Notes under the pieces: model-generated | Told to the model about the DNA's origin: nothing | Seen by the model: the letters and a program-made list of their open reading frames with translations, nothing else | Databases searched by the model: none | NCBI GenBank assembly: GCA_964470125.1 | Contig: CAYYBO010000002.1 | Location: 1 to 51,812, forward strand | Direction: 5' to 3' | Source of the DNA: an uncultured Planctomycetaceae bacterium | GTDB taxonomy: Bacteria > Planctomycetota > Phycisphaerae > UBA1845 > UTPLA1 | Length of the DNA stretch: 51,812 nucleotides | Shown: positions 1-51,812 of the stretch, piece after piece | How the letters are laid out: each line of letters begins with the position of its first letter | How positions within the stretch are numbered: position 1 is the stretch's first letter | Made by a program: the position numbers and the translations under genes

Positions 1-55
1 CGCCGGCATGGACACCGGCCAGGGCACTGTTCCTTATCGACCCCTAGCTTAGGAG
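1..55. repeat. 55-bp terminal overlap identical to 51758..51812 (signature of a circularly closed contig)
   Basis: Read directly: cgccggcatggacaccggccagggcactgttccttatcgacccctagcttaggag occurs at both window ends. Bases 1-52 repeat the 3' end of the 49713..51809 ORF. Confidence 0.95.
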
Positions 56-3197: not shown

Positions 3198-3224
3198 GCC
3201 TCAGCTTTAGCTTAGGAGTATCCC

Positions 3225-19594: not shown

Positions 19595-19860
19595 CGCCGC
19601 AACCGCCGGAAGGGTACGCGACGTGGCTGGACTACGTTCTCGACCCGGGTGACCCATACAAGAGCTTCGCGGGAGAATGGGCCGCTGCCGAACTCGCCGC
19701 GCTGCGCGCCGAGCGGGACGCTTGGAAAGCATTGTCAACACGGACACAGGCGGCGCTGGCCGAATTAGTGCTCGCCGTACGATTGCATCCGGCCGACGTG
19801 GGCCACGACGCTGCATTGCGTTCCGCCATTGCCACCCTGCGCCCGGAGGACAAGCCATGA
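19591..19860 (+). CDS. hypothetical protein
   Basis: 89 aa with GTG start overlapping the upstream stop (GTGA). Contains ELAALRAERD, encoded by a 30-bp exact repeat. Confidence 0.5.
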   Translation: MTPQPPEGYATWLDYVLDPGDPYKSFAGEWAAAELAALRAERDAWKALSTRTQAALAELVLAVRLHPADVGHDAALRSAIATLRPEDKP

Positions 19861-20360
19861 GCGAGACGCCGAAGCCGCCGCCGCTAGACCAATGGTTGGT
19901 GTTCGAGTTGAGGTGTGGGACTGGTCCGTATTGGGCGGTCTACTGGAACACGACGGACGAAAACTCGGCTCACCTACATCTGCCGGAAGGATGGGACGGT
20001 AGGCCGAGAAAGATGTTGCACGTCTCTGAAACGGACGCCGCAGAACTCGCCGACGCCAGAACTTACCGCGATGCCGTGCGAGCCGCACACAACGGCTACT
20101 GCGCAGAGATGCGCGACGCCATGCCGGAGTTACGCGAACCAGAGTCGCCAGCGGCGGCGATTTCCGACCTGGTGCAGACGGCCGAAGAAGATGGCGCAAT
20201 GCAGGAACGATTACGTTGGGAGCCAGAACTCGCCGCGCTGCGCGCCGAGCGGGACCGGCTGCGGGAACTGCTCACGCGAACACTTGTGATCGTAGGCGCC
20301 AACCGCAACACATGGACTGCCGACTTGATTGACGAATGTAAGAAGGAGCTTGCGAAATGA
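19857..20360 (+). CDS. hypothetical protein
   Basis: ATG at 19857 overlaps the upstream stop (ATGA). 167 aa. Carries the second copy of the ELAALRAERD repeat. Confidence 0.5.
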   Translation: MSETPKPPPLDQWLVFELRCGTGPYWAVYWNTTDENSAHLHLPEGWDGRPRKMLHVSETDAAELADARTYRDAVRAAHNGYCAEMRDAMPELREPESPAAAISDLVQTAEEDGAMQERLRWEPELAALRAERDRLRELLTRTLVIVGANRNTWTADLIDECKKELAK

Positions 20361-20572: not shown

Positions 20573-23233
20573 ATGGAGCTGCCGCTCTTCCAACATCACG
20601 GCGACTGCAGAGCCTGCCCGTTGGCGGAGCGGGCTAAGAGGCGGGGGCTGCGTACACGCGCTGCCTCGGGACTTACTGCTCCGCAACACAGTAAAGCCCT
20701 GGTATTCGTGGGTGCCGCCCCCGCCGCCGACGAGGAACGCACGGGCGTTGTCTACTGCGGCCCCGCCGGCACCCACCTCAACGGCACCTACATCCGTGGG
20801 CACAGCCTCAACAAGCTGGCTGATTGCTACCTGACGAATGCGTGCCGGTGCTTCCCCCGGGGACGGTCGGGCGTCGACCCCGTCGAAATCATGGCCTGTC
20901 GGCAATGGCTGCTCGAAGACCTGGAGCTGCTGCGCGCGCAGTACGAGGAGGTTGTGCTCGTCGCTTGCGGCTCCGAAGGCATTCACGCACTGCTGGGCCG
21001 AAACTGCTCTATCGGGACGTTTCCCCAGGGCCACCCGCAGCAACTCGGCGACCACCAGTACACGTGCTTCGCCACGTACCAGCCGGCGATCCTGCTGCCG
21101 AACCGCGACCCGGCGAAGTTGCCCGCCATCAAAGACCACCTGATGCTGGTGCGGCGGTGGCTGCGGACCGGCCGACTCCACGATCCGGTGGAGCTGCCCC
21201 GGCAACTCTATGGCCCGTCGGTGCCGGACCCGCCCGCGAACTGCGGCATCATCTCGCTGGACATCGAGACGTACGGGTGCGTCGAGAGGCAGCCGGTGCA
21301 GCGCTGCTTCCAGCCGACACACTCCGTTGCACTCGACGGCGTAAAGCCTTCGCAGCTGGTTCAGACAGTGGGCTTAGCCTGGAAGCAGAACGGCGTCGTT
21401 CGCACGAAACTCTACCGCATGTGCATCGCGGACGACCGGCGGCGGCTCCTTGCCGCACTGAAGAGGCAGCGAAAACTGCGACTGCTCTCCAACAATGTGC
21501 AGTTCGACGTGGTGAACCTGCGCTACTTCGACGAGGAGTTCCGCCGGGTTATCTCCCGCGAGGCCGGCTGCGAGCTGATCGACCTGATGGTCTATTCGTT
21601 CCTGGAGAACGACGCTCGCCCCGAGCGCAGCCTGAAGAGCTTCGTGGTGCTGTTCGGCATTGCCGACTACTACGACGAGCCCGTCGACCTGCGGAAGGGC
21701 CAGCGCTACCGCTCGGTTTATGACGGGCGGCTCCACCTCTACAACTGCAAGGACGCTGTCTGCACGCTGCTGTGCCTGGACGCCGTGCTCGACGGGATCG
21801 CCGACCGCTACGGTGCGGGCTCGCCGAAACTCTCCGCCGAAACGCGGACCTGGTACTCCGAGGCGCTGTGGCTGGCCGTCACCATGAGCGAGCAAGGTGT
21901 CATGTACGACATACCGGCTCTGGAGATGATCCGCGAGCGTCTGCAGCGCACTCTCGACCGGCTGTGGCAGTGGGGCGCCCCTCGCGACTTGCTAATGTGC
22001 AACGTCGGCAAAACAACCGGCAGCAAGACCTCGCAGCAGAAGCTCGTCGATGAGCTGGTGCGGAAGTACGCGCCGAAGACCGGCCCCGCCAAGCGGAACT
22101 TCGATCAGCAGCTGCTCCTAACCGAAAAGAAGGGAGACGTCTCCACCAAAGACGTGAACCTCACACTGCTCCGCGCCCAGGTTCCGAGAGGGACCGCGGC
22201 ACGGGCCGTCGACAACGAGTACTTCGAGAAGGTCGTGCGGCTGCAGCGCTTCCGCCGGCTCTTCAAACTGCAGACGAGCTACGTGCATCCGCTGCTCGGG
22301 CTGTCCCCCGACAACATCGAGTCCCAGCACATCAACGGAGTGGTGCACCCACGGTGGCACATCATCCCCAGCCGCTGGGCGGAGAACACCCCGGAGACTG
22401 GCCGGCAGCGCGAAGGCGGGCAGCGGCAAGCTCGCTTCTCGGCGCAGGACCCTCCCATCGCCACGCAGCCCGACTTCATCAGCGCGTGTCAGCGCAGCCG
22501 CTTCAAGGACGGCGCGACGCTGTCGTGCGACCTCTCTCAAATCGAGCTGAGGGTGCCGGTGATCTACAGTGGCGACCCGGTGATGCTGGCCTTGTTCGTG
22601 CAGGGCGTCTCGCTGCACGCGAAAACGGCGACGGAGCTGTGCGGTCGACCCATCGACAAGAAGAAGGACCCCGTCTGGTACGACGCCGGCAAGCACGCGA
22701 ACTTCCTGCGGGTTTACGGCGGCGGTGCGCCCAAGCTCCAGCAGACAATCCTGCTGCTGACGCACCAGAACATCCCGCTGGGCGAACTCGAAGCGTGGAT
22801 CGACGCCGACCGCCAACGCTACCCGGTGTTCTACGCGTGGCAGGAGTCCCTCTACGTGGAGGCGCAGACGAAGCATCGACTCAGCCTCCCGCTCACGGGG
22901 CTGCACCGGACGTTCCTGGGCGACGTGCGCAAGACCTACCGCTCCGAGATACTCAACTTCCCGGTGCAGGGCCTGGCTGCCATGCTCGCCCAATCAGCGC
23001 AGTTCGCCGTGGACCGGGAGCTGCGGCGGCACCGCGCGCGGACAGTCACCTACTCCAACGTGTACGATGCGGGCTACTACGACTGTCCTGCTGACGAGGT
23101 CGCCGAAGTGGAGAAACTCGTCCTGAAGTGGTTTAAGAAACCTCCGCTGTACGACTGGCTACTGGAGCACGGGTACGCCGCGTGTCCCCTTGACGCGGAG
23201 GTCAAAATCAGGTATAATACCTTGGCCGCATAG
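20573..23233 (+). CDS. family A DNA polymerase with 3'-5' exonuclease and an N-terminal family-4 UDG-like domain
   Basis: 886 aa.
- N-terminus: GDCRACPLAE and LVFVGAAPAADEERTGVVYCGPAGTHL, which match the UDG family 4 layout.
- Exonuclease motifs: SLDIETYG, NNVQFDVVNL, LYNCKDAV.
- Polymerase motif A: DLSQIELRV.
- Polymerase motif B: GKHANFLRVYGGG.
- Polymerase motif C-like: NVYDAGYY. Confidence 0.85.
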   Translation: MELPLFQHHGDCRACPLAERAKRRGLRTRAASGLTAPQHSKALVFVGAAPAADEERTGVVYCGPAGTHLNGTYIRGHSLNKLADCYLTNACRCFPRGRSGVDPVEIMACRQWLLEDLELLRAQYEEVVLVACGSEGIHALLGRNCSIGTFPQGHPQQLGDHQYTCFATYQPAILLPNRDPAKLPAIKDHLMLVRRWLRTGRLHDPVELPRQLYGPSVPDPPANCGIISLDIETYGCVERQPVQRCFQPTHSVALDGVKPSQLVQTVGLAWKQNGVVRTKLYRMCIADDRRRLLAALKRQRKLRLLSNNVQFDVVNLRYFDEEFRRVISREAGCELIDLMVYSFLENDARPERSLKSFVVLFGIADYYDEPVDLRKGQRYRSVYDGRLHLYNCKDAVCTLLCLDAVLDGIADRYGAGSPKLSAETRTWYSEALWLAVTMSEQGVMYDIPALEMIRERLQRTLDRLWQWGAPRDLLMCNVGKTTGSKTSQQKLVDELVRKYAPKTGPAKRNFDQQLLLTEKKGDVSTKDVNLTLLRAQVPRGTAARAVDNEYFEKVVRLQRFRRLFKLQTSYVHPLLGLSPDNIESQHINGVVHPRWHIIPSRWAENTPETGRQREGGQRQARFSAQDPPIATQPDFISACQRSRFKDGATLSCDLSQIELRVPVIYSGDPVMLALFVQGVSLHAKTATELCGRPIDKKKDPVWYDAGKHANFLRVYGGGAPKLQQTILLLTHQNIPLGELEAWIDADRQRYPVFYAWQESLYVEAQTKHRLSLPLTGLHRTFLGDVRKTYRSEILNFPVQGLAAMLAQSAQFAVDRELRRHRARTVTYSNVYDAGYYDCPADEVAEVEKLVLKWFKKPPLYDWLLEHGYAACPLDAEVKIRYNTLAA
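23190..23218 (+). promoter_or_regulatory. near-perfect sigma70 promoter at the 3' end of the polymerase gene
   Basis: TTGACG (23190-23195), 17-nt spacer, TATAAT (23213-23218). About 25 nt upstream of the next gene. Confidence 0.6.
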
Positions 23234-26896: not shown

Positions 26897-27838
26897 ATGC
26901 AAGAAAAGATGACATTCCCCAGCGGCGCTGTCCGCGAGAAGAAGCACGGCAAGGGTCGGTTCGATCTGCTGAGTCCGTTCGCGGCGATGCGGCGCGCCCT
27001 CGTCGCCGAGCACGGAGCTAAGGTCTACGGCGACCGCAACCACGAGAAGGGCCTGCCGTTCTCCAGCCGAGTCGACTCGATCAAGCGGCACCTGGATGAG
27101 TACGTGGCTGGCCGGCTCAACGAGGACCACCTCGCGCAGGCGTCGTTCTGGCTCGACTCCCTGATGCACGACGAAGTGATGATCGGTGCCGGGTTCAAGC
27201 CGACGGCTCTGGTGGACATTGGCCCCAACGCCGGGTGTCCCTGCGAGCATCTCGTTATCCCGGCTCCGTCGGGCGACCCCGACTTCCGAACGTGGTACGG
27301 GTCGCAGTTCTACAAGTCCGGATGCGCGGCCCCACGCAACCAGAGCATCGACACCGAGCCCGTCGTGCGGCTGGGTGAAGTGCCGGAGAAGGCAGCGCGT
27401 TCCTCTATCCGGCGGATTTACGTCAGCGGACCGCTTACCGACAGCGACCCGAAGGTTCGTCGCCTGAATATCGCGCGAGCTTCGGCCATCGCGAAAGCTC
27501 TGATCTTTGAGGGATTCGAGGTCATTTGTCCCCACACCATGACCGACGACTGGGAAGACCTGGGGCGCGACCGGCTGCTGCAGAACGACTTCGCGTTGAT
27601 TCGCGACTGGGCGGACGCGATCGTAGTCGTCGGTACGAACATCGACATCGCGAAGTCCACCGGAACGCACGCAGAAGTCGCCGTCGCGCGTGCCGCATCG
27701 AAGCCGGTGTTCCGCTTGCACGTGTGGCTTGGCGAGACCCAGCTTGCCAACTACGTGAAGGAGTTTGCCGAGGCGCTGCGCAGCCCGAACCCGTCGGCGC
27801 ACGACGCTTTCCGGCCTGGCCACGAACTGGAGTCCTGA
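26897..27838 (+). CDS. fusion protein: dATP/dGTP pyrophosphohydrolase N-terminal-type (MazZ/DUF5664-like) domain plus DUF4406/nucleoside 2-deoxyribosyltransferase-like domain
   Basis: 313 aa with AGGAGG RBS.
- N-terminal: FPSGAVREKKHGKGRFDLLSP...HGAKVYGDRNHEKGLPFS...HL...EDHLAQASF
- C-terminal: IYVSGPLTDSD...FEVICPH...NDFALIRDWADAIVVVG...STGTHAEVAVARAASKPVF. Confidence 0.6.
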   Translation: MQEKMTFPSGAVREKKHGKGRFDLLSPFAAMRRALVAEHGAKVYGDRNHEKGLPFSSRVDSIKRHLDEYVAGRLNEDHLAQASFWLDSLMHDEVMIGAGFKPTALVDIGPNAGCPCEHLVIPAPSGDPDFRTWYGSQFYKSGCAAPRNQSIDTEPVVRLGEVPEKAARSSIRRIYVSGPLTDSDPKVRRLNIARASAIAKALIFEGFEVICPHTMTDDWEDLGRDRLLQNDFALIRDWADAIVVVGTNIDIAKSTGTHAEVAVARAASKPVFRLHVWLGETQLANYVKEFAEALRSPNPSAHDAFRPGHELES

Positions 27839-38111: not shown

Positions 38112-38636
38112 ATGGCCCATACTGGTAAACTCACCGAAAAGCAGCGGGCTGTATTCACGCGTGTCATCAAGGCCAGGTACGCGGCGCTCTTGTCGTCGCT
38201 ACAGGCGGCGGAGCAGGCATGCATTGGAGCTGGCAACGTGATGAACCCGGCCCGCCCGTTCTATTCCCTCCCTGATTTGCAGCACCCCGAGAGTGTGCAA
38301 CAGTGGGTAGCGGAGTTCCCGCCGGAGATTCAGCCGGCGGTCTCGGCGTACCTGGCTGCCTACTTGAAGCTGGATGCACTGGTCGACGCCGAGAATGACC
38401 GACGGAATGCGGCGAGAGTCGCCAGCCACAAGAAGATTGAAGCGCTGCGGCTCCGGTTGATGGCGGAGCGCGACGAGAAGCTGGTGAACGTCGCATTCGA
38501 TGCCGTCGATGGGGACGCCGTCGGCCAGCTGGCGAAGTACCTGCCTACGATGGACGACCTGCGCCGCATGGTGCAGGAGGCCGGGTTGCCGCTGCAGATC
38601 GCAGCGCCGGCAACGTTGCCGCTGCTCGGTGAGTAG
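38112..38636 (+). CDS. hypothetical protein
   Basis: ATG at 38112 follows GAAGGAGGA. 174 aa. Confidence 0.55.
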   Translation: MAHTGKLTEKQRAVFTRVIKARYAALLSSLQAAEQACIGAGNVMNPARPFYSLPDLQHPESVQQWVAEFPPEIQPAVSAYLAAYLKLDALVDAENDRRNAARVASHKKIEALRLRLMAERDEKLVNVAFDAVDGDAVGQLAKYLPTMDDLRRMVQEAGLPLQIAAPATLPLLGE

Positions 38637-38676
38637 CCGGGTGGCGTTTCTCTTTCACTTCAACCGGAGGCACAGC

Positions 38677-38919
38677 ATGCGCATCAAGAAGATCAACCCG
38701 AAGTTTCTCGGCGTCAAATCGACGGAAGCGCGGCTCAGGATGATGAGCGCGGCTCTGCAGGAGGCCGGGTATGACCGGGCGTGCTACGTCCGGCAGCATC
38801 ACAACCGACAGTGGCACGTCCATCCGCTCGCCGGGGTCGGCAAGCCTGCGGACATCCAAGCGGCCGTAACTCTGCTGAGCGCTTCGGCGGAGCCGGCCAT
38901 GTCGGGCAGCCCGGCCTAG
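38677..38919 (+). CDS. hypothetical protein
   Basis: ATG at 38677 follows GGAGG. 80 aa. Confidence 0.5.
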   Translation: MRIKKINPKFLGVKSTEARLRMMSAALQEAGYDRACYVRQHHNRQWHVHPLAGVGKPADIQAAVTLLSASAEPAMSGSPA

Positions 38920-39000
38920 CCGGCGCCTGACACGCCTTCCATCGGCGAATGATGGGGTCTCGTGCGGCAAGGCCACAGCCCCCTAGGGGGCAGCCGCGCC

Positions 39001-39060
39001 GTGGGTACAGTGTTTCAGACTGGCAGCGACGCTGCGGGGGTTCGACTCCCCCTGCCCACT
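39001..39060 (+). ncRNA. non-canonical 60-nt tRNA-like element (perfect acceptor and T arms, no 7-nt anticodon loop in the central arm)
   Basis: Hand fold: GTGGGTA / CAGT-GTTTCAG-ACTG / GCAGC-GAC-GCTGC / GGGGG-TTCGACT-CCCCC / TGCCCAC + T. The T-loop matches the GGTTCGAnTCC tRNA hallmark. It lies in a 157-bp intergenic gap. Confidence 0.4.
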
Positions 39061-39076
39061 TAGAAAGGAGACACCG

Positions 39077-39514
39077 ATGATCTACGTTACGCTTGTGCGG
39101 ACTGATCGAGTAGGGTTCTCGGCCATCGCGGCGGTGAGTTGGAAGGACGAGCAGGACATAGAGCCGCTGAGTGTGGGCTACGACGGCGTGCAGCGCAAGC
39201 GCTCCAAGCGAGAGACGGCCAGCGAGTACGTGGCCTACCAAGCATCTCACGGCAAGTCGGTTCGGATGGTGCCTGCGTGGTGTGTCGACCGATTGCTGCA
39301 GGCGAACGGCGGGCTCCTCGGTGACGATGCCCGCCGACTGGTCGCGGAGCTGGCAATCCCTCAGCCAGTAGACGCCGCGAAGTCTGCAGCCCGTAGCGGG
39401 GCCGCCCCCAAACCAGTCGAATTCCAAGCGGAAGTGGACTCCACCCGGATGACTCCGGCGGAGTTCGAGCAGCACATGAAGCGCAAGTTCCAGAAAGCGT
39501 GGGACACGTGGTGA
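39077..39514 (+). CDS. hypothetical protein
   Basis: 145 aa with AAAGGAG RBS at 39064-39070. Confidence 0.55.
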   Translation: MIYVTLVRTDRVGFSAIAAVSWKDEQDIEPLSVGYDGVQRKRSKRETASEYVAYQASHGKSVRMVPAWCVDRLLQANGGLLGDDARRLVAELAIPQPVDAAKSAARSGAAPKPVEFQAEVDSTRMTPAEFEQHMKRKFQKAWDTW

Positions 39515-39537
39515 CCACCACAGAAAGGACGACTACC

Positions 39538-39786
39538 ATGCGCATGAAGGGACCGTGTTACCAAGTGATCGTCCTGATGGACGACGGCGAAGACTTGCCT
39601 TTCGGATTGTACCGGGATGAGGCGGCTGCGGCGGAGGCGGCCGGGGCGCTCCGTCGGGGCGACGTGCTGGGAGCGCCGGTGAAGACGATGCTTGCCGCTG
39701 ACTCCGACGAGCCGACGGGCGTCGGCATCTACGAGTACCAGGACGGGGCCTTCGTCGGCCGCAGAATGGTGAAGACCTTCCCATGA
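39538..39786 (+). CDS. hypothetical protein
   Basis: ATG at 39538 follows GAAAGGA. 82 aa. Confidence 0.45.
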   Translation: MRMKGPCYQVIVLMDDGEDLPFGLYRDEAAAAEAAGALRRGDVLGAPVKTMLAADSDEPTGVGIYEYQDGAFVGRRMVKTFP

Positions 39787-40297: not shown

Positions 40298-40573
40298 ATG
40301 GAGATTGGTAATATTGTTGACCCACGGCTGGAGAGGGGCTCACAGAAGTACATTGATCGGCTGCGGACGCGTCCCGGTAGTCTGGAGGCTCTTCAGGCGG
40401 CGGCCGATCTGGCGTGTCTCCTGTACCAGACGAACCGGCCGATCCCTGTGGAGATCATGAAGGCGGTGGTGTACGCGGCGTGGTCGCTGGTCCAGGTCGT
40501 CCGGGCGAACCAATCGGTGGACCCACCGAAAACCGCAGCCCCGGCGCCGGGCGAAGGCGGGGGTGCCGTATGA
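40298..40573 (+). CDS. hypothetical 91-aa protein translationally coupled to the radical-SAM gene
   Basis: Its stop overlaps the radical-SAM start (ATGA at 40570). Helical N-terminus and a P/A/G-rich C-terminal tail. Confidence 0.5.
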   Translation: MEIGNIVDPRLERGSQKYIDRLRTRPGSLEALQAAADLACLLYQTNRPIPVEIMKAVVYAAWSLVQVVRANQSVDPPKTAAPAPGEGGGAV

Positions 40574-41754
40574 TTCACCTGATTGATTGCGTCGAACCGA
40601 ATCGCTTCGAGCTGTTCCTGCGGAAGCACGTCTACCCCAAGATACCCGGCTACCAGCTGCCGACGGGGCCGATGGAGCTGCCGGTGTGGGCGGCTCGCCT
40701 GCTGAGTCTGCCGCGGTTGATGGAGTATCGCTGCATCCACCATGCCCGCGACCTGTTCCCGGTGTTCAGTGAGCGACGACTCGACCTGGACGTGTACGTG
40801 TTCGCGATCAGCTCGGATAACGCCGCGCTGGTGCTCCAGTGCCTGAAGGAGTGCTCGGAGATCGGGTGCCAGGCGTACGTCGGCGGCTCGTTTGGGGCGT
40901 TCGAGTCGCTCGGGGCTGCCGCGGCCGGGACAGGAGCGGTGTGGTGCAACTCCCTGGAGCAGCTAGCGGAGAAGCTGGTAGACCGGCCAGCCCGTCTGTA
41001 TGAGGAGTGGGGCCGGCTACCCAGCGGGACGGTCATGCGGCTGCGAGTGGACGGTGCGTGCCCGTGGGGCAGCTGCATCTTCTGCTATGGAATTCCGCAG
41101 CAGGCGAACTCGTCGATGGACGCGACGGCCGTGCGGCGGCGGGCGGCGGCGTTGGGAGCGGTGCGGCCGAGCTACGTCTATTGGGACGAGAAGATGTTCC
41201 CGTGGACCGAAGACCGCTCGCAGCTCATGGAGAGCCTCTTAAGCCACGAGCTTCGCGGGGCTCGCGGCTTCGTGGTCCAGACGAACCCCCGGTGGCTACC
41301 GGACCCACGGACAGGAACGTATGCGTGGACGGCGGTGCGGGTTGTGGAACTCGGGCTGGAGGCATTCAACGAGTCGGCGCTCGTCTTCCTGAACAAGCCG
41401 CACGCCCTCATGTCGGACAAAGACTACTCGGAGCGGCTGCAGTGGGTGGGGCTGGCGCTCGGTGCTTATGTGCTGCCGTACATCCTGCTGGGCGTGCCGA
41501 AGCAGCCGCCGGGCGAAGTCGTCGAGGAACTCACCTGGATGAAGCGGATGTTCGGGGATAGGCTGCCGGGCGTCCAGTTGAACTGGTTGGCGGCGTATCC
41601 GGGCACCCGGCTGGAGAGCTGGTGCGAGAGGCGCTTCGGCCACGTCACCGCCGCCGACCGTAGCCAGCTCACTCACGACAAGACCTGGCTCACCGAAGAC
41701 GAGCAACAGGCCTGGCTCACGGCAGAGCGTGACATCATGGGGATGTTCGCCTGA
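40570..41754 (+). CDS. radical SAM enzyme with N-terminal B12-binding-like domain and a variant Cx4Cx2C cluster motif
   Basis: 394 aa.
- Rossmann-like N-terminal region: DVYVFAISSDNAALVLQCLKE...AYVGGSFGA.
- Cluster motif: DGACPWGSCIFCYG (41059-41085).
- VELGLEAFNESAL, YILLGVPKQPPGE and AAYPGTRL match the class B radical-SAM layout. Confidence 0.6.
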   Translation: MIHLIDCVEPNRFELFLRKHVYPKIPGYQLPTGPMELPVWAARLLSLPRLMEYRCIHHARDLFPVFSERRLDLDVYVFAISSDNAALVLQCLKECSEIGCQAYVGGSFGAFESLGAAAAGTGAVWCNSLEQLAEKLVDRPARLYEEWGRLPSGTVMRLRVDGACPWGSCIFCYGIPQQANSSMDATAVRRRAAALGAVRPSYVYWDEKMFPWTEDRSQLMESLLSHELRGARGFVVQTNPRWLPDPRTGTYAWTAVRVVELGLEAFNESALVFLNKPHALMSDKDYSERLQWVGLALGAYVLPYILLGVPKQPPGEVVEELTWMKRMFGDRLPGVQLNWLAAYPGTRLESWCERRFGHVTAADRSQLTHDKTWLTEDEQQAWLTAERDIMGMFA

Positions 41755-41785: not shown

Positions 41786-42250
41786 ATGTGTTTAAGCACC
41801 GCAACCAAAATCGCCAAGCCGCATAGCGGCTACGGCTACAAGGTCGTGCGAGTTTGCGTCGGCCCGAGGGGAAAACTCAGGTGGCGCTCGCTCTACTTCG
41901 GCAGGACGTGGAGGCCCGTCAAGAAGTGGTGCAGGGCGCGCCGAGTGCACCTCTGTCCCGAGTCGATGTGGGGTAAGTTTTACTTGTCGGGCTTTCATAT
42001 GCTGAAGCAGCTGGCGGACGTCGAGAAGTACGTCGGACTCGCCGATCGGGGTTGGTGGCCGCGGCGCGGGTCGGAGCGCTGGTGGAAGATGATCGCCGCG
42101 AAGGTATGTCGCCACCACGCTGTGGTGCGCGTCAAGTTCGAGGGCGCGGACTGGTGGGGGTTGGACGACACCGGACAGAAGGACGGCGCGAGAGCGGTAG
42201 TTGCTCCACGCATGATGGTCGAGAAAATCCTGTGTGAAGGGACACGGTAG
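41786..42250 (+). CDS. hypothetical W/R-rich protein starting Met-Cys
   Basis: ATG at 41786 follows AGGAG. 154 aa. GYGYKVVRV...LSGFHMLKQLADVEKYV resembles widespread uncharacterised phage proteins with a G-Y-K-V...G-F-H pattern. Confidence 0.5.
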   Translation: MCLSTATKIAKPHSGYGYKVVRVCVGPRGKLRWRSLYFGRTWRPVKKWCRARRVHLCPESMWGKFYLSGFHMLKQLADVEKYVGLADRGWWPRRGSERWWKMIAAKVCRHHAVVRVKFEGADWWGLDDTGQKDGARAVVAPRMMVEKILCEGTR

Positions 42251-49716: not shown

Positions 49717-51809
49717 GCAGGTTCTATCTGCCGCCAAAATCGAAGAACAGTGACGACGTCCGCGAGGCCCTGCGCAATGCGTACGACGACGCCGAAGCCG
49801 AGTACGTGCACAAGTCGATCGCGTGGGCGTTCGCTCACTGGTACATAGCGGGCGTGCGCGACTTCCGCGCGGGCTCCTTCATAAAGGGGATGCCCTCGGT
49901 TCCAACCAGGGACACGCGGCAGCGCCGGCGCGTTCGTTGCGAGAACTCCCTCGTTCAAGCGCAGACGGAGATGGGCCGCCTCATCGGCATCGACCTTGGT
50001 CCCAGCGTGAAGCGCCGGCCCGGGCTCGGCCTCGACAATATTCGGGAGGACGCGCTCTCCCAGGCCGTGCTGGACGACTGCGAGCCGTCGATGCTCACCT
50101 CCCAAACCAAAGTCGCCCAGGCCTACCACCTTGTGACCTACGGAACCGTTGGGATCATCACGGAGCCGCCGGACCCCGCCCTCCGCACGTGGAAGCCGCG
50201 TGCCTCGCTAGTGCCGGCGTGGGAGCTGCGGCCACTCCCCGGCCAGGTCTCCTCCCCCGAGCAGGCGGGCGGGCTTAGCTGGTGCCGCTGGGTTAATTTA
50301 GACTGGTTCAAGAACAAGTTCCGCAACGTGGTGAAGGTGCCGAGGGACATCGACGACCAGACCACCCAGGTCGAGTCGACGGAGTATGGCCGGGGACGCG
50401 ACGAAGCGGGCGCCCCTAACGTCGTGCTGCCTATCCTCGGGGGCATCGGCGCCTACAGCACGATGGGGTTCACGCGCTACCAGTCGCTCAACGAGGAGCC
50501 CTCCGACGCGCAGAAGACCCGTCTGTGTCAGTTGAGGGAGCACTGGCTGACCAGCGGCGACGGTCGCGTCACCCGCTATGTCCTGCAGATCGGCGACACC
50601 AAGCCGCTGCTCGATCTTGACTACACCAGCGACGAGTGGCTCACGAAGCTCGGGGGCGTGCTGCCGTGTCTGCCGCTCAACATCGCTCGCTACTACTACG
50701 TCGGCAGCTGGTGGGCTCGGTCTTTCGTGGACAAGCAAATCCCGCTCAACCGCGAGATGGAGACGCTGCTCGGCGAGTGGCTCGACTACCTCCTTACGCT
50801 ATCGCAGCTGACAGCCCTGTGCATGCCGAGTACCATGGGCATCGGCAAGCGGCAGCTCGACGAAATCCGCAAGAACAAAGCGCTGTTCTACACGCCGGAC
50901 GGGGCCGCCCCCAACCTCGAACCCAAGGTTATCTCGCCGCCGAACGTCGGCGACGCGATGGGCCGCACCGTCGGCATGCTGAATCAACTGCAGAAGGAGC
51001 AGTCGGCGCAGGGCGAGCTGATTTATGGCGGGGTACCTGGCCGCTTGGAGTCGGCGCGGGCGACGGCGATGGTCGGTCAGTTCCAGAACGTCCCGATCGC
51101 CGGCCCTGCCGAGTCGCTGGCCGGCGCCTGGGTTGATACGTGGCGCGCCGCCCTCGGGTTCGTCCGCTACCAGAGCGACGTCCTCGCCTCCCAAATCAAC
51201 GTGGAGGTCCGGCGCATCGACGAGATGTCCGTTGGACTCAAGTTCGACCCGAAGAGTGGCCGCGTCGCTCTCGGCGAGTTCGCCTTCCCCGATCCGTACG
51301 CGGTGCAGCTGAGCATCCGATCGAAGGAGCCGCGCGACCCTCGCACCTCCAAGGAGGAAATCCTCCAGTACCGACAGGTCGGTCTGATGACTGCCAACGA
51401 GTGCCTCATCCAGTTGGTCCGGGAGGGGATCGACTCGCCACGGCTGGACCGCACCCCCTACAACAACTACGTCTGCGCCTGGACGGAGAACGCCACGTTC
51501 TTCCAGGGTGGCACGGTCGTCGGCAACGAGCACGCCGAGAACCACACCATCCACCTGCTGGTGCACCTCGAATTCGCACAGAGCCTCACCTTCAAAGCTA
51601 TGAAGGACCAGGAGCAGAGAGTCGTCCTGCAGCACATCGACTGGCACAAATCGCAACTTGCGTCGCTGCCCGACCCCGTCCCGGGGATGGACAACGCAGA
51701 CAACTGGGGCTCCGGTGGACCGCCGGGGCTCCGCGCTCAGATGGGCGCACCCCCTGGCGCCGGCATGGACACCGGCCAGGGCACTGTTCCTTATCGACCC
51801 CTAGCTTAG
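49713..51809 (+). CDS. putative portal protein
   Basis: 698 aa with an ATGA overlap. Located between terL and the scaffold/capsid genes. Call rests on size and position only. Confidence 0.6.
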   Translation: MSRFYLPPKSKNSDDVREALRNAYDDAEAEYVHKSIAWAFAHWYIAGVRDFRAGSFIKGMPSVPTRDTRQRRRVRCENSLVQAQTEMGRLIGIDLGPSVKRRPGLGLDNIREDALSQAVLDDCEPSMLTSQTKVAQAYHLVTYGTVGIITEPPDPALRTWKPRASLVPAWELRPLPGQVSSPEQAGGLSWCRWVNLDWFKNKFRNVVKVPRDIDDQTTQVESTEYGRGRDEAGAPNVVLPILGGIGAYSTMGFTRYQSLNEEPSDAQKTRLCQLREHWLTSGDGRVTRYVLQIGDTKPLLDLDYTSDEWLTKLGGVLPCLPLNIARYYYVGSWWARSFVDKQIPLNREMETLLGEWLDYLLTLSQLTALCMPSTMGIGKRQLDEIRKNKALFYTPDGAAPNLEPKVISPPNVGDAMGRTVGMLNQLQKEQSAQGELIYGGVPGRLESARATAMVGQFQNVPIAGPAESLAGAWVDTWRAALGFVRYQSDVLASQINVEVRRIDEMSVGLKFDPKSGRVALGEFAFPDPYAVQLSIRSKEPRDPRTSKEEILQYRQVGLMTANECLIQLVREGIDSPRLDRTPYNNYVCAWTENATFFQGGTVVGNEHAENHTIHLLVHLEFAQSLTFKAMKDQEQRVVLQHIDWHKSQLASLPDPVPGMDNADNWGSGGPPGLRAQMGAPPGAGMDTGQGTVPYRPLA

Positions 51810-51812
51810 GAG
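51758..51812. repeat. 55-bp terminal overlap identical to 1..55
   Basis: Read directly. See the feature at 1..55. Confidence 0.95.

Follow-up and report, generated by a model that had tools for sequence, protein, structure and literature searches.

Phage transfer RNA (tRNA) genes are usually seen as codon-usage helpers and, more recently, as replacements for tRNAs cut by defence systems. The acceptor/T-arm module of a tRNA is read by RNase P, RNase Z, the CCA-adding enzyme, TrmA/TruB and EF-Tu. tmRNA can be charged and is a substrate of RNase P, while RNase P and RNase Z cut mascRNA, of vertebrate nuclear long non-coding RNA origin, out of a long transcript. Plant mitochondrial t-elements, found via the motif GGTTCRANYCC, define mRNA ends (Forner et al. 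2007, PMC1920247); they are non-decoding, lie in mRNA precursors and have ends made by RNase P and RNase Z, sometimes followed by CCA-type tailing. In M. smegmatis, the 7-bp acceptor stem of YrlA has been given as the reason for its cleavage by RNase P and its CCA tailing (Chen et al. 2014, PMC4201824), and armless mitochondrial tRNAs as well as 8/4 or 9/3 allo-tRNAs, some of them in phages, combine non-canonical geometry with a decoding anticodon arm (Mukai et al. 2017, PMC5389517). Here we analyze a tRNA-like element at 39001-39060 on the + strand of a phage genome assembled as a 51,812-nt contig, the whole of which is referred to as the window. Judged from sequence and predicted fold, it is a tRNA-Gly-derived, anticodon-less mini tRNA that has kept acceptor, discriminator U and T arm, its D-loop and anticodon machinery having been lost and replaced by short, lineage-specific hairpins. 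Elements are found at the same site, upstream of a homologous gene, in two related contigs (L008 and L007). Our tentative reading is that it may act as a t-element/mascRNA-like cutting signal, excised by RNase P and RNase Z from a polycistronic transcript.

Fold of the element and its relation to tRNA-Gly

The initial annotation had drawn this sequence as a four-helix cloverleaf; its letters and coordinates proved exact, and the RNAfold minimum free energy (MFE) and centroid structures of the 60-mer return the same fold (-31 kcal/mol, z = -3.1, with 1/200 shuffles equally good). The fold persists when the whole 157-nt intergenic gap holding the element is folded, and all four helices reach pair probabilities of 0.80-1.00 in a 261-nt context (Table 1). 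Stem lengths of 7/4/5/5 bp are those of a canonical tRNA, the seven acceptor pairs include one U.G, and the helices abut with zero junction nucleotides. Stacked coaxially, acceptor stem and T arm give the 12-bp “top half” of a tRNA. No CCA is encoded after the element, and no promoter or terminator of its own is predicted beside it. Its T-loop motif is in sense orientation relative to the + strand genes, and GGTTCGANTCC has a single exact occurrence in the genome. When 300 dinucleotide shuffles of the genome were scanned for a 5-bp T stem with a TTCRANY loop and an adjoining 7-bp acceptor closure, the architecture was seen in 12 of them (mean 0.05), so that a single occurrence is only mildly improbable (p ~0.04).

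That the element is tRNA-derived, as proposed at the outset, was borne out by searches that lead to tRNA-Gly. Scanning metagenomes with GGGGTTCGACTCCCCNNNCCCNCT, a pattern comprising the T arm, C68-C70 and U73, gave 120 matches, of which 109 are canonical tRNA-Gly genes (66 with anticodon UCC, 27 GCC and 16 CCC); 31 of the 42 matches of a T-arm pattern scan in IMG/VR are likewise tRNA-Gly. Apart from a weak partial match of L138 to the DNA polymerase, none of the 120 metagenome matches is related to the phage by tblastn. A tRNA-Gly covariance model (R1), built from 29 of the retrieved genes, has 39001-39060 as its sole match in the window (35.9 bits, rough E ~5e-7) and scores 32.2 bits on the L008 element (103-153). 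In its alignment, with low posterior, arm 1 takes the place of the D arm and arm 2 that of the anticodon stem, whose loop shrinks from 7 to 3 nt; by eye, arm 1 also resembles a mutated tRNA-Gly(UCC) anticodon arm (11/17 bases). Arm 1 is thus readable as either a D arm or an anticodon arm, which leaves the homology of the element interior ambiguous. The bacterial tRNA-Gly acceptor identity set consists of U73, G1-C72, C2-G71 and G3-C70 (PMC9976931, Table 1); L008 carries 4/4, the window and L007 3/4, with U2-A71 in place of C2-G71. The C35/C36 anticodon identity is absent: no anticodon loop is conserved, and arm 1 of the window reads UUC.

The 162 T-arm pattern-scan matches further yielded two anticodon-less acceptor/T-arm forms in unrelated contexts. 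One is a ~49-nt tRNA-Gly-like element at 3119-3167 of L140 (IMGVR_UViG_3300025087_000237; the same element as L083), an unrelated AT-rich phage contig; it scores 35.6 bits with the Gly model, consists of an acceptor, a remnant of a 5' D arm and a T arm, and ends ~35 nt 5' of an open reading frame (ORF) starting at 3202, among small hypothetical proteins. The other (L086, 2767-2808 on the minus strand of contig Ga0209797_10016049) is a 42-nt minihelix, GUGG(U)GCG-GAAAUCCGU-GGGGG-UUCGACU-CCCCC-CGCCCAC-U, in which 24 positions of the last 25 nt match the phage element. Its contig is unrelated and apparently bacterial; the minihelix is followed by a strong intrinsic terminator, adjoins another tRNA 3' fragment on the other strand, matches no Rfam family and scores 26.5 bits with the Gly model. 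This minihelix may be a scar left by integration or a free-standing counterpart in bacteria. Several IMG/VR phage contigs (one of 171 kb) also carry tRNA-Gly(UCC)-like genes that ARAGORN leaves uncalled (L141 27-103, L145, L157; L147 506-576, L150, L171, L172, L173 3269-3338), some with compact or odd D arms, others with an odd anticodon loop (ACACCAG); the L173 and L008 elements have the same 3'-terminal 24 nt.

Rfam reports no family at gathering scores anywhere in the window. Of the canonical tRNA features, the 7-bp acceptor with discriminator and the 5-bp/7-nt T arm are present. With canonical tRNA-Gly the element shares the GGGG-UUCGACU-CCCC T arm, G1-C72, G3-C70, G4-C69, G5-C68 and U73 (in L008 also C2-G71), whereas it is 51-60 nt long instead of 71-74 nt and has no D loop (G18, G19; the arm 1 loop GUUUCAG is without GG), no connectors U8/N9/N26, no variable loop, no 5-bp/7-nt anticodon arm and no C35/C36. 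As the initial annotation had noted, the central arm offers no 7-nt anticodon loop: its loop has 3 nt, and the 7-nt loop of arm 1 stands on only 4 bp. Like t-elements (PMC1920247), the phage element joins a GGTTCRANYCC T arm to an acceptor-like stem in a non-canonical cloverleaf, is apparently non-decoding, and lies in sense orientation between co-oriented genes, where it would form part of an mRNA precursor and would share their RNase P/RNase Z cleavage; unlike them, it belongs to a bacteriophage, is smaller, has a glycine-type acceptor and shows no sequence homology to them. The likeness to mascRNA/menRNA (RF01684), namely a length of ~56-61 nt, a 7-bp acceptor, a T arm and a reduced inner arm, is one of architecture and not of ancestry, the Rfam local scan giving 20.3 bits in the window (second-best) and 19.8 bits in L008 (best), far below the gathering score of 42.5.

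The tRNA-like domain of tmRNA, too, has acceptor and T arm without an anticodon arm. tmRNA was nevertheless rejected: the element lacks the G3.U70 alanine identity, a tag ORF and pseudoknots, ARAGORN and Rfam at gathering are negative, and the Rfam tmRNA model aligns only with a 15-17-nt T arm in both window and L008. YrlA-type Y RNAs (PMC4201824) are tRNA-mimicking non-coding RNAs with a T arm, some of them phage-encoded, but are circularly permuted and have a Ro60-binding stem, a conserved D arm and an adjoining Ro60 (TROVE) gene; this candidate was dropped, given no Rfam match, no permuted layout and no TROVE domain in the scanned ORFs. An 8-bp acceptor with a 4-bp T stem, as in allo-tRNAs (PMC5389517), is one way to draw L008; allo-tRNAs, like armless tRNAs, keep an anticodon arm and decode, whereas the phage element family conserves none. 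By analogy, we would group the element functionally with tRNA-like processing elements (t-elements, mascRNA), outside every curated family; no description of such an element in phages was found in the literature searched.

Conservation of the element in related phages

Among 5.8 billion proteins, only two diverged relatives of the downstream gene were found, those of L007 and L008. The L008 homolog (81% amino acid and 89% nucleotide identity) is preceded by a complete 51-nt element, GCGGGUG-G-[GCC-A-GGCU-GGGU-GGCC-GGC]-GGGG-UUCGACU-CCCC-A-CACCCGC-U, which, folded alone, forms an acceptor of 7 bp, a single inner hairpin and a T arm; in a 221-nt context, its acceptor pair probability is 0.57. 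It begins 11 nt after the upstream stop codon, leaving no room for a separate promoter. L007 (contig SRR29243427_28630), with 51% amino acid identity in the downstream gene and 91% in the phosphoribosyltransferase (PRTase) gene, starts inside the T loop and hence shows a partial element, UUCGACU-CCCCG-CGCCCAC-U.

Sequences around and within the element have been rebuilt across these lineages. Upstream spacers measure 81 nt in the window and 11 nt in L008, downstream spacers 16, 36 and 47 nt, and the interiors of window and L008 elements are unalignable. Acceptor strands, T arm and U discriminator, in contrast, carry no indels in any lineage. The T loop (7/7) and the discriminator U are identical in all three; L008 shares the four inner pairs of the T arm as well, and L007 its 3' strand. 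MAFFT misaligned the two full elements, which is why the comparison of stems used a concatenated acceptor+T alignment. Between window and L008, 5/14 acceptor positions differ, all by transitions and with pairing kept: pairs 2:71 (U-A/C-G) and 7:66 (A-U/G-C) are doubly compensated, and one U.G/U-A change comes in addition. Acceptor and T stems are paired in 23/24 cells, the exception being a C.A at the outer T-stem pair of L008. In simulations, five random substitutions leave all pairs intact with a probability of 0.02-0.13, and at least five acceptor changes arise at the divergence of the flanks (85-89% identity) with p = 0.015-0.05.

These three lineages provide modest evidence, suggestive but not conclusive, of selection on stem pairing. 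The initial annotation had proposed to look for compensatory changes in related phages: stems are kept and changes preserve pairing, but a sample with two complete copies is too small for robust covariation. As far as sequence comparison goes, the data lean towards a maintained acceptor/T-arm module rather than a decayed gene. Further sampling added little: six Logan contigs encoding an identical downstream protein have an identical, uninformative intergenic region, the downstream protein has no relatives in viral_contigs (IMG/VR), the PRTase and the 80-aa protein retrieve only themselves or near-identical sequences from the 5.8-billion-protein set, and the stretches examined in terminase relatives L009-L016 (26-32% identity) contain no such element.

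Table 1 Parts of the tRNA-like element and adjoining features in the window
Feature	Position	Strand	Remarks
Acceptor 5' strand GUGGGUA (G1, U2, G3)	39001-39007	+	Pairs with 39053-39059, probability 0.80-1.00; tRNA-Gly model positions 1-7
Inner arm 1: 4-bp stem CAGU/ACUG, 7-nt loop GUUUCAG	39008-39022	+	Pair probability 0.99-1.00; not conserved in L008
Inner arm 2: 5-bp stem GCAGC/GCUGC, 3-nt loop GAC	39023-39035	+	Pair probability 0.98-1.00; not conserved in L008
T arm GGGGG-UUCGACU-CCCCC	39036-39052	+	G53-C61, U54, U55, C56 and A58 all present
Acceptor 3' strand UGCCCAC	39053-39059	+	CACCCGC in L008; three changed positions, pairing-preserving on the 5' strand
Discriminator-position U (U73)	39060	+	U also in L007 and L008; subsequent bases differ
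Alternative upstream 5' acceptor strand, tRNA-Sec-like 76-nt fold	38985-38993	+	Considered, rejected
Upstream 80-aa gene	38677-38919	+	Co-oriented with downstream gene
Downstream 145-aa gene	39077-39514	+	Gene calls agree on identical Logan contigs
Ribosome-binding site (RBS) AAAGGAG and ATG of the 145-aa gene	39064-39079	+	RBS begins 4 nt past the element
394-aa protein	40570-41754	+	No Pfam/PDB sequence match; CPWGSCIFC (CX4CX2C) motif

A proposed processing signal and competing explanations

Conservation of the acceptor/T arm and discriminator, sense orientation between co-oriented genes and the lack of a predicted promoter of its own make a processing signal the best-supported mechanism. 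The element would be co-transcribed within a polycistronic mRNA, between the 80-aa and 145-aa cistrons, and its acceptor/T-arm module would be recognized by the tRNA-maturation enzymes of the host. RNase P would cut at 39000/39001, before G39001, and RNase Z or an equivalent 3' pathway after U39060. Such cleavage would split the transcript directly 5' of the RBS of the 145-aa gene, parting the two cistrons, and would release a stable ~60-nt tRNA-like RNA able to receive CCA; flanking-gene expression might benefit. An anti-RBS pairing GUCUC/GAGAC, seen in the MFE structure of the window, was discarded as not conserved in L008.

Several observations weigh against a processing signal. The element has no D loop for a tRNA elbow and no encoded CCA, and the absence of either lowers the affinity of bacterial RNase P. 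At position -1, where U is preferred, the window has C and L008 has A; the distance from element to start codon varies among lineages; and neither an anti-RBS pairing nor any other regulatory one is conserved in all of them. The comparative sample comprises two complete copies and one partial copy from closely related phages, the covariation shuffle control is unimpressive (117/500), and the T-arm identity between window and L008 would be expected anyway at ~88% background identity. The L140 and L086 forms, moreover, suggest that internally deleted tRNA-Gly-like RNAs may be ordinary decay products.

The element could accordingly be viewed as a neutral relic of an ancestral phage tRNA-Gly gene, its D/anticodon region deleted and the remainder decaying without selected function, any RNase P cleavage being incidental; we regard this as possible, though on the unlikely side. 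Its tRNA-Gly ancestry is clear, the interior indels between lineages are what decay predicts, and so might be the C.A mismatch in the T stem of L008, while the unrelated AT-rich L140 contig holds a similar internally deleted element and the sample is too small for robust covariation. tRNA gene fragments are also reported to be pervasive in prokaryotes (bioRxiv 10.1101/2022.07.05.498093). Decay fits less well with indels that rebuilt surroundings and interior yet spared acceptor strands and T arm in every copy, with five acceptor substitutions that all preserve pairing, and with replaced interiors that form hairpins again, in the window without unpaired junction bases. The discriminator U is retained, and the element is still present in all three lineages despite divergence of the adjacent genes down to 51% amino acid identity. 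Another explanation, which we consider unlikely, takes the excised, CCA-tailed mini-tRNA itself as the product: a trans-acting mimic that could serve as a glycine-acceptor sponge or decoy for host tRNA-targeting toxins and defences reading the acceptor/T-arm or CCA end, or as an aminoacyl carrier for non-ribosomal transfer. The glycine acceptor-branch identity (PMC9976931, Table 1), full in L008 and three-quarters complete in the window and L007, would suit such a role. So would an acceptor stem that changed faster than the flanking genes and still pairs, as if its specificity had been retuned, an anticodon region that is dispensable (L008) and a hypervariable accessory neighborhood, with genes of 51% and 42% identity beside a PRTase of 91%. 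C35/C36, however, are strong determinants for GlyRS and are absent, and pair 2:71 of the window is U-A where the identity set has C-G. The genes nearby show neither a partner enzyme nor a link to defence, an ATE_N match in ORF 41786-42250 (E = 0.09, 13 bits) being judged noise, and the downstream protein is not modellable. Most elaborate, and quite doubtful in our view, is a dedicated non-decoding glycine-type minihelix that is host-excised, CCA-tailed and aminoacylated, and that acts in trans either as a decoy shielding host tRNAs from acceptor-end-directed toxins or as an aminoacyl donor for a phage enzyme of the adjacent block, its acceptor retuned in an arms race.

Two further readings are essentially excluded. 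One form of an oddly shaped decoding tRNA, suggested in the initial annotation, would be D-armless, with UUC as its anticodon and a long variable arm; the other would be a 76-nt tRNA-Sec-like form starting from the upstream strand of Table 1. The 7-nt loop of arm 1 does supply U33, UUC and A37; ARAGORN calls, at the 80% threshold (-ps80) only, a poor 76-nt tRNA-Glu(ttc), built on the upstream strand with two acceptor mismatches; and tRNA-Sec (RF01852) is the best model for the window in the Rfam local scan, at 28.5 bits against a gathering score of 47. We nonetheless rate a decoding tRNA as very improbable. ARAGORN reports no gene at the element in its default, -ps, intron, -mt, -mtmam and tmRNA modes (runs covering the window and 12 loci; 0 tRNA genes in the window), and the Sec alignment lacks its anticodon stem. 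The upstream strand, which had been offered as an alternative 5' strand, has a pair probability of 0.00 in the 261-nt context and no counterpart in L008, and the corresponding fold was rejected. L008 itself has no 7-nt inner loop and nothing anticodon-like, and the 8/9/26 and variable-loop connectors for an L-shape are missing.

Phage attachment (att) sites often duplicate the 3' ends of tRNAs, and the pattern scan has several 3' fragments of this sort among its non-tRNA matches, which span anticodon loop to 3' end. An attP remnant or recombination scar copying the 3' part of a host tRNA gene, which the initial annotation had named among the results that would refute it, is nevertheless exceedingly improbable. 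The 24-mer GGGGGTTCGACTCCCCCTGCCCAC and the looser pattern GGGGTTCGACTCCCCNNNCCCACT have 0 matches in the genome_contigs set (one genome from each of 185,579 species) and in IMG/VR, and no integrase or recombinase domain is found by domain scans among the ~47 ORFs of the complete, circularly assembled genome. With no host match and both the 5' and 3' acceptor strands present, the element is not an att remnant.

Genome context and implications

The first and last 55 nt of the window (1-55 and 51758-51812) are identical, which identifies it as a complete, circularly assembled genome of ~51.76 kb (~51,757 bp); the identity itself is a k-mer overlap artefact. The genome has a G+C content of 64% and carries all large ORFs taken as genes on the + strand. 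Its encoded proteins include a terminase, a D5-type primase-helicase, a PolA with a fused UDG-like domain, a PD-(D/E)XK nuclease and an SU10-type adaptor, and the phage is of lytic type. INPHARED (50,697 GenBank phages) contains no DNA similarity to the window, and the terminase matches Bacillus and Clostridium phages at 25-30% identity over 25-45% of the protein.

The element had been placed just upstream of a “PRTase/radical-SAM block”. The PRTase part of this label is weakly supported (Pfam 22.7 bits, below cut-off; phrog_2068 E = 1.5e-12), whereas the radical SAM part is unsupported, the 394-aa protein offering the CX4CX2C motif alone. A variant of this protein with 89% identity occurs in contig SRR15237810_4090 (L017), where the surrounding genes are 96-100% identical; viral_contigs hold no relatives. 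Neighboring proteins gave nothing credible in Pfam (E up to 5) or in PDB sequence searches, and no tRNA-related enzyme, aminoacyl-transferase or known anti-defence gene was detected near the element. The predicted structure of the 145-aa protein has a predicted local distance difference test (pLDDT) score of 55.6. By sequence comparison with L007 (68-756), a hypervariable or mosaic accessory stretch (window 39077-39786) appears to begin at the tRNA-like element: the 145-aa gene and the following 82-aa gene (39538-39786) are 51% and 42% identical, and the PRTase gene comes next.

Upstream, a terminator-like hairpin of 11 pairs followed by TTTCTCTTTC lies at 38620-38656, directly 5' of the 80-aa gene; if functional, it could make the 80-aa gene, the element and the downstream block a separate transcription unit. 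The 81-nt spacer 5' of the element holds a perfect 12-nt palindrome, CCCCCTAGGGGG (38980-38991), within a larger hairpin (~38963-38997), and is not present in L008. Elsewhere, a perfect 30-nt direct repeat (19690-19719 and 20226-20255, 536 nt apart) lies within ORF 19677-20360, the DNA polymerase A at 20573-23233 carries a fused UDG-superfamily domain, and ORF 26897-27838 gives a match to PF18909, the dATP/dGTP diphosphohydrolase N-terminal domain (E = 3e-10). These two enzymes are linked to phages with 2-aminoadenine in place of adenine (Z genomes); window scans showed no PurZ-like match, and a modified-base genome is a lead only.

Should the element be only a decaying tRNA gene, the finding would be an ordinary one. 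ARAGORN and Rfam miss such elements completely, yet the L140/L083 and L086 forms surfaced among the 162 pattern matches, and the class may therefore be under-counted. If the mimic explanation were true, a small tRNA mimic would engage the tRNA-binding proteins of the host. If the element is a processing signal, it would be a bacterial-virus counterpart of organellar “tRNA punctuation”, setting where a long phage transcript is cut.

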